A stretch of DNA of 64,000 nt, taken from NCBI GenBank assembly GCA_012411765.1, contig GCA_012411765.1_3031.1. One strand, 5' to 3'. The stretch comes from a phage. Under the pieces are notes generated by a model that worked only from the letters and a program-made list of their open reading frames with translations, ran no database searches and had not been told where the DNA came from. Of the stretch, positions 56,724 through 60,515 are shown one piece after another; position 1 is the stretch's first letter, and every line of letters starts with the position of its first letter. The position numbers and the translations under genes are program-made.

Positions 56724-59700
56724 ATGGCTACTTTAAAACAAATACAATTTAAAAGAAGCAAAACCGCAGGTGCACGTCCTGCTGCTTCAGTATTAGCCGA
56801 AGGTGAATTGGCTATAAACTTAAAAGATAGAACAATTTTTACTAAAGATGATTCAGGAAATATCATTGATTTAAGCATTTCCGCTGGCGGTAATATCAGT
56901 GGAAATGTAACTATTGATGGAACTTTACGCGTCAATGGACCAATAAACAATTTTGGAAATTTTTCCACAAGTGGCCAGATTACCGCTGGTAGTAGTATTT
57001 CAGCTCAAGTTTTTAGAGCATTGCAAGGTTCGTTTTATACAAGAGCATCAAATGATGTCTCAAATGCCCATTTATGGTTTGAAAATGCCGATGGCACTGA
57101 ACGAGGCGTTATATATGCTCGTCCTCAAACTACAACTAACGGTGAAATACGCCTTAGGGTTAGACAAGGATCAGGAAGCACCATTAATAGCGAATTCTAT
57201 TTCCGTTCTATAAACGGCGGTGAATTTCAAGCCAATCGTATTTTAGCATCAGATTCGTTAGTAACAAAACGCATTGCAGCTGATACAGTTATTCACGGTG
57301 GCAAAGCCTTTGGTGTATATGATACGGATTCATTAGTTAACTACGTATACCCAGGCACCGGTGAAACTAACGGAGTAAACTATCTTCGTAAAGTTCGCGC
57401 TAAATCAGGCGGTACCATATGGCATGAGCTTTGTACTGCTCAATCAGGCCAAGCTGATGAAATGTCTTGGTGGACCGGTTCTACTCCTATTTCAAAACAA
57501 TTTGGTATTCGTAATGACGGTCGGATGATTGTCCGCAATAGTCTTGCATTAGGCACTATGACTACTGATTTTCCATCGAGCGATTATGGTAATGGTGGCG
57601 CATTAGGATTCGGTGCTTATTTGGCTCTAGGTGATAACGGGACTGGTTTACGCTATCAAAAAACCGGTGTTTATGATTTAGTTGGTTCCGGATTGTCTGT
57701 TGCATCTATTACTCCAGATAGTTTCCGTAGTACTCGCAAAGGTTTATTTGGACGTTCAGAAGACCAAGGCACCACATGGATTATGCCTGGAACGAACGCT
57801 GCATTTTTATCAGTTCAAACACAGGCTGATGAAAACACTGCTGGAGACGGCCAGACGCATATTGGCTATAACTCAGGCGGAAAAATGAACCACTATTTCC
57901 GTGGTAAAGGCAAAACTAATATTAATACTCAGGAAGGTATGGAAGTTAATCCGGGTATTTTGAAATTGGTAACTGGCTCTAATAATGTAATGTTTTATGC
58001 TGATGGCGGTATTACATCTGTTAAGCAGCTTTCAATATATAATGGCATATATTTAGCAGCTAATAATTCTACTGCTGGGCTAACATTCGCTCCAACTACT
58101 ACAATTGATGGTACTAAGCAAATTTTGTGGGAAGGCGGTACTCGTGCTGGGCAGAATAAAAGCTATGTAACTGTTAAAGCGTGGGGTAATTCATTTAACG
58201 CATCTGGCGATCGTAATCGTGAAACGGTTTTTGAAGTAGCTGACGGACAAGGTTATTATTTTTATTCCCAACGCGTAGCCCCAAGCGGCTCAGAAACTAC
58301 TGGTCCTGTTGTAACCCAGTTCAATGGACAAGTTAATGCTAGAGGAAGTATTATTACTGACGGAAGTTTTAAAGTTAATGGATTAAGCACTTTAGTCGGT
58401 AATGTTACTATGTCTAACGGTTTGTTTGTCCAAGGTGGTTCTTCTATTACTGGACAAGTTAAAATCGGCGGAACTGTTGATGCATTAAGAATTTGGAATG
58501 CTGAATACGGTGCTATTTTCCGCCGTTCAGAAGCATCATTACATATTATCCCGACTCCTAAAGATGCTGGTGAAAGTGGTGGAATAAGTAATCTCCGCCC
58601 GTTAAGTATTAGTCTTAATAATGGTATGGTACAAATGCGTCATTCTGTCACGTTAGGTGATGATGGTGCAGGCGGTAATATGATTACTGTGGACAACGAT
58701 AACAAACGTGTTGTTGTTGCTAGTAATAGTCGTATTGCTCCTAATTTCAGAATGCAATTAGGGCAATCATCTTATATTGATGTAGAATGTACTGATGCTG
58801 CTCGCCCAGCCGGTGCAGGTTCATTTGCATCCCAGAATGACGCAAACGTAAGAGCTCCAATTTATATGAATATAGAGCGTACTGCTGCTTCTGAATATAT
58901 TCCAATTGTTAAACAGCGGTATGTAAATGGTGATAGTACTTATTCTATTGGCACCTTAATTTCTCAAGGAGACTTTCGCGTTCATTATCACCAGGGTACT
59001 AGTACTACCGGTACTGATTTAAGCTGGGAATTCCGTCGCAATGGTGATTTCCGCGCGGCAGGTAAAATTATTGCCGGTGCTGCTACTTTTGGCACTGATG
59101 GTAATATTACTGGTGGTTCAGGAAACTTTGCCAACTTAAACAGCACAATTGAATCACTTAAAACTGATATTGTTTCAAGTTATCCTATTGGGGCTCCTAT
59201 TCCATGGCCAACGGATACTCCTCCTGACGGTTACGCTATTATGGAAGGCCAGACCTTTGATAAGTCTGCGTATCCAAAGCTAGCTGTTGCATATCCTAGT
59301 GGCGTTATTCCGGATATGCGCGGGCAAACTATTAAAGGTAAACCGAGTGGTCGTAATGTATTAAGCGCGGAAGCTGATGGTATTAAGTCTCATACCCATG
59401 GAGCATCTGCATCCAATACAGATTTAGGTACTAAAACTACATCAAGCTTTGATTATGGCACTAAGACCTCTTCAAGTTTTGACTATGGTACTAAAACCAG
59501 TAATACCACAGGTAACCACTCTCATACTGTAAGCGGTACTACGAGTTCTGCTGGTGCACACCAACATGCGCGCTCAGGTCCTCAGTTACAAGCCGGCATA
59601 CCCAATAACATATTCTATGACGGATATAATACTGTAGGTGCAAACGCCAACGCTAAAATCACCGGATCTGTGAGCGGTGCTACTGCAGGGTCAAATATAG

Positions 59701-59936
59701 CCAAAACTTCTTCAGACGGTGCTCATACTCATACTTGGTCTGGTACTACAAGCACTACAGGTAACCATGCTCACACAGTAGGTATTGGTGCTCATACCCA
59801 TACTGTAGGTATCGGTGCTCATACCCACACGGTAGCAATTGGCTCGCATGGTCATACTATCACTGTAAATAGTACAGGTAATACAGAAAACACGGTTAAA
59901 AACATCGCTTTTAACTATATCGTTCGTTTAGCATAA
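56724..59936 (+). CDS. 37: Long tail fibre distal subunit gp37 (receptor-binding, 1070 aa) with His-x-His repeats near C-terminus
   Basis: C-terminus ...[15 protein letters not shown] and GxHxH repeats as in T4 gp37. Confidence 0.95.
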
Positions 59937-59940
59937 GGAG

Positions 59941-59956
59941 AGGGGCTTCGGCCCCT
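59941..59956 (+). terminator. Hairpin after gene 37
   Basis: AGGGGC-TTCG-GCCCCT. Confidence 0.5.
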
Positions 59957-59963
59957 TCTGAAC

Positions 59964-60515
59964 ATGAAAATTTATCATTATTATTTTGACACTAAAGAAT
60001 TTTATAAAGAAGAAAATTATAAACCAATTAAAGGATTAGGTCTTCCTGCACATTCAACAACTAAAAAACCTTTAGAACCTAAAGAAGGATATGCGGTTGT
60101 ATTTGATGAAAGAATTCAAGATTGGATTTATGAAGAAGACCATCGCGGTAAACGAGCCTGGACTTTTAATAAAGAAGAAATTTTAATAGGCGAAATAGGA
60201 AGTTTAGTAGGTGTAACTTTTGATGAGCCCGGCGAATTTGATATATGGACTGATGACGGTTGGAAAGAAGACGAAACATATAAGCGAGTTTTAATTCGTA
60301 ATAGAAAAATTGAAGAATTATATAAAGAGTTCCAAGTTTTAAATAATATGATTGAAGCTTCTGTCGCGAATAAAAAGGAAAAATTCTATTATAAAAACCT
60401 TAAGCGGTTCTTTGCTCTTTTAGAAAAGCATGAGCATTTAGGTGGTGAATTTCCTAAATGGCCTGAAAAAGAACAGAAGCCTTGGTATAAGCGTTTATTC
60501 AAGCATTACGTATAA
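59964..60515 (+). CDS. 38: gp38, T4-type tail fibre assembly chaperone (183 aa)
   Basis: 183 aa MKIYHYYFDTKEFYKEENYKPIKGLGLPAHS; not the longer T2-type adhesin. Confidence 0.9.
   Translation: MKIYHYYFDTKEFYKEENYKPIKGLGLPAHSTTKKPLEPKEGYAVVFDERIQDWIYEEDHRGKRAWTFNKEEILIGEIGSLVGVTFDEPGEFDIWTDDGWKEDETYKRVLIRNRKIEELYKEFQVLNNMIEASVANKKEKFYYKNLKRFFALLEKHEHLGGEFPKWPEKEQKPWYKRLFKHYV

Follow-up and report, generated by a model that had tools for sequence, protein, structure and literature searches.

Which receptor does the tail-fiber tip of this phage recognize, and is the tip a new one? The tip sets which bacteria a phage adsorbs to, and knowing its allele predicts the receptor. The question is raised by the end of gene 37 in a 64,000-nucleotide stretch of phage DNA (hereafter the window; GenBank assembly GCA_012411765.1, contig GCA_012411765.1_3031.1), where a sequence-only reading had noticed an array of His-x-His motifs separated by loops unlike those of T4 and had taken a changed receptor specificity to be probable. 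We consider it highly probable that the tip is the TuIb allele of the Tequatrovirus gp37 receptor-binding tip, with one extra needle module, eight metal sites and OmpC as its receptor. For comparison, the T4 tip is built from three chains that form a collar and then a six-stranded antiparallel β needle, in which, at each His-x-His box, one axial iron ion is held octahedrally by six histidines, all three chains contributing.

The locus itself is a familiar one. Gene 37 is flanked by open reading frames of 1289, 371 and 221 aa upstream and of 183 and 218 aa downstream, and this neighborhood is the T4 long-tail-fiber cluster, genes 34, 35, 36, 37, 38 and t; the phage is a Tequatrovirus. The nearest record to the window in the phage collection is Serratia phage PhiZZ30, at 97.1% nucleotide identity over 98% of the 25 kb compared (39001–64000), and that stretch is identical to no record in the collection; the phage is probably a distinct isolate from PhiZZ30 that has its tail-fiber allele in common with it. 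Gene 37 itself is 99.0% identical to its PhiZZ30 counterpart at the nucleotide level, and its product is 72% identical to T4 gp37 at the amino acid level, in a mosaic pattern. Two places in the shaft stand out. Residues 51–100 (56874–57023) are just 34% identical to T4 between flanks at 90–96%, and there is an 11-aa insertion relative to T4 at aa 637 (aa 601–650, about 58524–58673); PhiZZ30 gp37 differs from that of the window at nine residues, all before aa 615, and five of the nine cluster at aa 604–614. The patches at aa 51–100 and 601–650 look like recombination patches. The features of the locus are as follows, with the needle and head assigned by homology to T4:

56724..59936, + strand: gene 37, long tail fiber distal subunit, 1070 aa (open reading frame)
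59190..59333, + strand: phage tail collar domain, aa 823–870 (Pfam PF07484, E = 2.7e-11)
59391..59567, + strand: ascending needle strand, aa 890–948, His boxes 1–3, spacers of 42 and 14 residues
59391–59399, + strand: His box 1, aa 890
59427–59456, 59457–59486 and, partial, 59487–59513, + strand: GTKTxSSFDY units in the 42-residue spacer
59517–59525, + strand: His box 2, aa 932
59559–59567, + strand: His box 3, aa 946
59568..59723, + strand: head (receptor-contact) domain of the TuIb type, aa 949–1000, 52 aa
59724..59855, + strand: descending needle strand, aa 1001–1044, His boxes 4–8, spacers of 14, 9, 9 and 9 residues
59724–59732, + strand: His box 4, aa 1001
59766–59774, + strand: His box 5, aa 1015
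59781–59807 and 59808–59834, + strand: GIGAHTHTV units
59793–59801, + strand: His box 6, aa 1024
59820–59828, + strand: His box 7, aa 1033
59847–59855, + strand: His box 8, aa 1042
59856..59933, + strand: conserved C-terminal stretch that returns to the collar, with the same sequence in T4, TuIb, PhiZZ30 and the window
59940..59957 (outer stem 59926–59963), + strand: UUCG-tetraloop hairpin, GC-rich, between genes 37 and 38 (-16.8 kcal/mol, z = -3.05)
59964..60515, + strand: gene 38, T4-type tail-fiber assembly chaperone, 183 aa, 95% identical to T4 gp38

That the region is the receptor-binding tip and host-range determinant, as had been proposed, is upheld by homology: in a phmmer search, the C-terminal 278 aa of gp37 match the solved structure 2XGF, the T4 gp37 receptor-binding tip of Bartual et al. 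2010, with E = 1.7e-93 (query aa 93–370 against chain residues 2–242). The collar domain scores 43.7 bits against a gathering cut-off of 24 and aligns with the collar part of 2XGF. Gene 38 is placed as in T4, TuIb and PhiZZ30. Taken together, the 2XGF match, the collar and the T4-type gp38 indicate the T4-type arrangement, in which gp37 ends in the adhesin. We also considered a tip of the T2/T6 type, in which the adhesin is a separate, glycine-rich gp38, unlike T4 gp38 in sequence, that caps a gp37 with no His-box needle, and rejected it because gp38 here is a T4-type chaperone and gp37 carries a His-box needle. The UUCG hairpin in the 27-nt spacer ahead of gene 38 overlaps the Shine–Dalgarno region of that gene, and it is kept, with small changes in the stem, in T4, TuIa and TuIb.

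The motifs of the tip are all in place. The last ~180 aa hold eight His-x-His boxes (T4 has seven) and a repeated GTKTxSSFDY motif, every element quoted in the sequence-only reading being found, and the C-terminal 11-residue motif that it quoted lies at aa 1060–1070. Sixteen of the 25 histidines of gp37 fall within the last 182 aa, and all 16 belong to the eight boxes; when these 182 aa are shuffled, HxH occurs 1.3 times on average, and none of 200,000 shuffles reaches eight. Two full GTKTxSSFDY units occupy aa 902–921 and are followed by GTKTSNTTG, a third and partial unit, and two identical copies of GIGAHTHTV occupy aa 1020–1037. The interval 59390–59936 that had been given for the array has an exact end and a start that precedes the first His codon, at 59391, by a single base.

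How, then, does this tip differ from that of T4? The T4 chain runs up the needle with boxes 1–3, forms the head, and runs down again with boxes 4–7 (PMC9659904, PMC6957217). Its boxes, at aa 883, 915, 929, 966, 980, 989 and 998, are all in register with boxes of the window, which has one more. Relative to T4, the window tip has 10 additional residues between His boxes 1 and 2, namely one GTKTxSSFDY unit; 15 and 3 additional residues in the head, between boxes 3 and 4; and 9 additional residues that make up one GIGAHTHTV unit with the eighth His box. These insertions account for 37 of the 44 residues by which gp37 exceeds its T4 counterpart, the lengths of 1070 and 1026 aa given by the open reading frame and by NC_000866 agreeing with those cited earlier; the net other 7 residues lie upstream, where the main changes are the insertion of 11 aa at aa 637 and the loss of 5 aa near aa 758. 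Over aa 951–1000, the head is 26% identical to that of T4, and it is 18 aa longer (52 aa against 34). In other words, the tip shares with T4 a collar, an iron-stapled β needle, a head, a conserved C-terminus and a gp38 chaperone, and differs in the head and in one additional needle module. Alignment with T4 gp37 thus finds a tip that is not identical to that of T4. The claim of a conserved scaffold and C-terminus holds, as the C-terminal return is the same in T4, TuIb and PhiZZ30. The claim of diverged loops is right for the region between boxes 3 and 4, which has been replaced, but the His array has not diverged diffusely: what sets it apart from T4 is the discrete insertion of whole, matched repeat units.

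Although the tip differs from that of T4, its allele is already known: it is widespread, and its earliest sequence came from phage TuIb in 1990. The TuIb gp37 record (X55191; Montag, Hashemolhosseini and Henning 1990) has the same eight His boxes, two GTKT units and 52-aa head, followed as in the window by a T4-type gene 38 and gene t, and it is 96% identical to the window over the last 267 aa, which is the extent of the comparison since the record is without the N-terminal three quarters of gp37. The differences are a few substitutions around His box 1 (SHTHG against AHSHS) and in the collar; within the 52-aa head there are two conservative changes, L/I and T/S. Architectures were compared as full His-box spacing vectors, and that of the window (42, 14 / head / 14, 9, 9, 9) is identical to that of TuIb. 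With a 58-aa query spanning the head, identity is 96.6% to TuIb, 91% to FelixPlatter (Bas40) and 60.7% to TuIa; the window tip shares its spacings with TuIb and its head lies above the 90% identity to TuIb that we required for the TuIb-type allele. The closest match of all is PhiZZ30 gp37 (MT176426, QIN97916), which is 100% identical over the last 282 aa and has the identical tip. FelixPlatter gp37 has the same architecture, is 94% identical over the last 182 aa and carries five substitutions in the head. TuIa gp37 (X55190) likewise has 8 His boxes and 2 GTKT units in the same arrangement, and its head is equally long; it is the sequence of the head that differs. The 8-box architecture is thus common to TuIb, TuIa and FelixPlatter.

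An insertion on one strand would put the needle out of register unless the opposite strand gained a partner for it, and we looked across the family for such pairing. A first set comprised the 120 best homologues from a database clustered at 90%, together with the window, T4, TuIb, TuIa and FelixPlatter; 122 of these could be parsed, and 122 of 122 obey both of two pairing rules, with the 3 unparsed sequences conforming by eye. By the first rule, the number of descending 9-residue spacers follows the length of the first ascending spacer: two for 32 residues (1 GTKT unit), three for 42 (2 units) and four for 52 (3 units), with n = 50, 71 and 1 in this set. By the second, both strands carry equally many 14-residue spacers (0/0, 1/1 or 2/2 in this set). 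A second set of 146 new representatives at 50% identity, taken from a profile search, yielded 116 parsed sequences, and again all 116 conform; it includes a zero-unit class, in which a 22-residue spacer goes with one 9-residue spacer, and five cases of a 52-residue spacer with four 9-residue spacers. The 238 parsed sequences are related to each other and are not independent events; nevertheless, four to five length classes and about 240 members with no parsed mismatch argue strongly that the GTKT and 9-residue units would pack against each other. At least 59 different head sequences are found on needles that keep the rule, so the match between units is maintained despite head swapping.

What would such a tip look like? 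By homology to T4, the three chains would form a collar and a β needle with axial irons, and would then intertwine beyond the needle to make the small, receptor-contacting head, with the gp38 chaperone encoded downstream assisting the folding of gp37. In the extra module, the ascending 10-residue GTKTxSSFDY unit would be matched by the descending 9-residue GIGAHTHTV unit. From the box positions we infer eight metal sites, against seven in T4, and a needle that would be about one repeat (roughly 2–3 nm) longer than that of T4, which measures ~150 × 25 Å by electron microscopy (PMC3004832). From the box spacings, the irons are predicted to interleave every ~7–9 residues, with a putative order of 3, 4, 2, 5, 6, 7, (8), 1 from head to collar. 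An AlphaFold2 monomer model of the last 256 aa, built on a 36-sequence alignment, has a pLDDT of 54 and a pTM of 0.21, and a Foldseek search of the PDB with that model returns only 2XGF (TM 0.21, rmsd 16 Å), a match driven by sequence. A monomer model of low confidence is what one expects of a tip that is an obligate intertwined trimer; this model, at its pLDDT of 54, shows a hairpin formed by the 14-residue units.

Do the inserted units lengthen the needle at all, or could they be structurally silent, looped out or disordered, such that the needle keeps the length of T4 and seven metals? In favor of silent units, the two are unequal in length by one residue (10 and 9 aa). Against it, both unit types co-vary over the ~240 members described above with no parsed exception, and the added GIGAHTHTV reproduces its iron-binding neighbor exactly. 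Moreover, H929 and H931 are iron ligands of T4 gp37, seven irons lie along the T4 needle, and changing these two histidines to alanine abolished plaque formation (PMC6957217). We therefore regard silent units as quite unlikely. A still more skeptical explanation ascribes the duplications to a recent slip of replication in this one genome or to an error in its assembly, and draws on the fact that the units are tandem repeats in the DNA: Tandem Repeats Finder reports a period of 30 at 59430–59498 (2.3 copies, 79% matches) and one of 27 at 59772–59835 (2.4 copies, 86% matches). These levels of matching are low enough, however, to indicate that the duplications are old rather than the product of recent slippage. 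The same architecture has, besides, been sequenced independently in TuIa and TuIb (1990), PhiZZ30 and FelixPlatter. One match spans at least 80% of the tip DNA in 107 phage records, and the best 40 of those 107 matches are single full-length pieces, which speaks against length differences. We give this explanation next to no weight, and prefer an old, matched module that would extend the needle. As for phage contingency loci, a 2025 preprint on the subject concerns homopolymer tracts, in which it reports tail fibers to be depleted, and is not relevant to these repeats.

The receptor is the point at which we part from the sequence-only reading. T4 uses OmpC, and according to Datta and Henning in 1977 and Montag in 1990, TuIb reportedly does as well. 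TuIb is also listed with OmpC, and TuIa with OmpF (PMC9659904), and an ompC mutant is not infected by the BASEL phage FelixPlatter, infection being restored by complementation (PMC8594841). Because the head in the window is nearly identical to that of TuIb, for which OmpC is the reported receptor, and 91% identical to that of FelixPlatter, which depends strictly on OmpC, the primary porin of the window tip is most likely OmpC, the same as for TuIb, FelixPlatter and T4. A receptor other than that of T4 is thus unsupported at the protein level. Could the tip nonetheless recognize another primary protein, be it OmpF, as in TuIa, or a porin specific to Serratia? The head is, after all, replaced relative to T4, and the T4 specificity region, residues ~932–965 (PMC9659904; specificity also PMC5221442), falls within what has changed. 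Head loops can indeed switch porin: TuIa, with the same needle and a related head (61% identical), uses OmpF. In addition, PhiZZ30, whose tip is identical, is recorded on the host Serratia sp. ATCC 39006; a search of the literature for a study of PhiZZ30's receptor or host range found none, the phage being mentioned as a reference genome only. Against another receptor stand the two conservative changes that separate the head from that of a phage listed with OmpC, the knockout and complementation of ompC with a head at 91% identity, and phages ESh17 and ESh18, whose heads are 98% identical and which plate on Shigella, as a binder of enterobacterial porins would. We judge a different primary porin improbable and retain OmpC.

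Finer specificity (the mode of lipopolysaccharide binding, OmpC variants, the Serratia host of PhiZZ30) may nevertheless differ from that of T4. For example, T4 residues G938 and T939 are needed for the E. coli B lipopolysaccharide mode (PMC5221442), and they align to T and V in the window, which we count on the side of a changed receptor as well; the alignment is weak there, and the substitutions are only a hint of a possible different mode.

How common is this head? A tblastn search with the head query returned 111 records from phages of Escherichia, Shigella, Serratia and Yersinia, of which 65 reach at least 80% identity. The T4 head type gave 43 phage records, about 20 of which are T4 stocks or derivatives; in the collection searched, the T4 head type is rarer than the TuIb head type among sequenced phages. 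The rest of the T4-head matches listed are mostly phages of ~86–88 kb that are unrelated to T4, and the T4 head is 76–90% identical in vB_EcoM-VpaE1, REP5-10, AYO145A and phiWec174/177 (H168–H181). The presence of the T4 head in unrelated phages implies that phage families have exchanged the tip module horizontally.

The module also reaches beyond T4-like phages. The lambda Stf family, i.e. the side tail fibers of lambdoid and other enterobacterial prophages, shares the collar–needle–head module, the rule of matched units and the C-terminal 11-residue motif, and differs in having short, unrelated N-terminal parts, 6–10 His boxes and other heads. Hundreds of prophage side tail fibers end in the same module, in E. 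coli, Shigella, E. fergusonii and Enterobacter, and their needles of 6–10 His boxes always have units matched between strands (P0001–P0266). In P0237, a family representative from the second set of sequences and the only oddity there, His box 2 is lost (GTKTTDSAGPFS...), yet one GTKT unit and two 9-residue units are present; some axial metal sites may be dispensable.

With OmpC as the predicted receptor and an allele that is among the commonest in sequenced T4-like phages, the window brings no new biology. The strict pairing rule is the only mildly new point, and it may or may not have been published already; no statement of it was found in the literature covered, to which Bartual 2010, Montag 1990 and Tetart 1998 do not belong. 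A speculative extension, which we offer tentatively and think rather doubtful, is that the needle acts as a modular ruler, in which 10-/9-residue (GTKTxSSFDY/GxGxHxHTV) and 14-residue units come and go strictly as pairs to give 6–10 metal sites, its length being evolvable and tuning the reach of the head through lipopolysaccharide or O-antigen to the porin. If this were true, needle length, besides the head, would be an evolvable trait of these fibers. For the engineering of fiber tips, the pairing itself offers a simple rule: units of the needle should be added to, or taken from, both strands at once.
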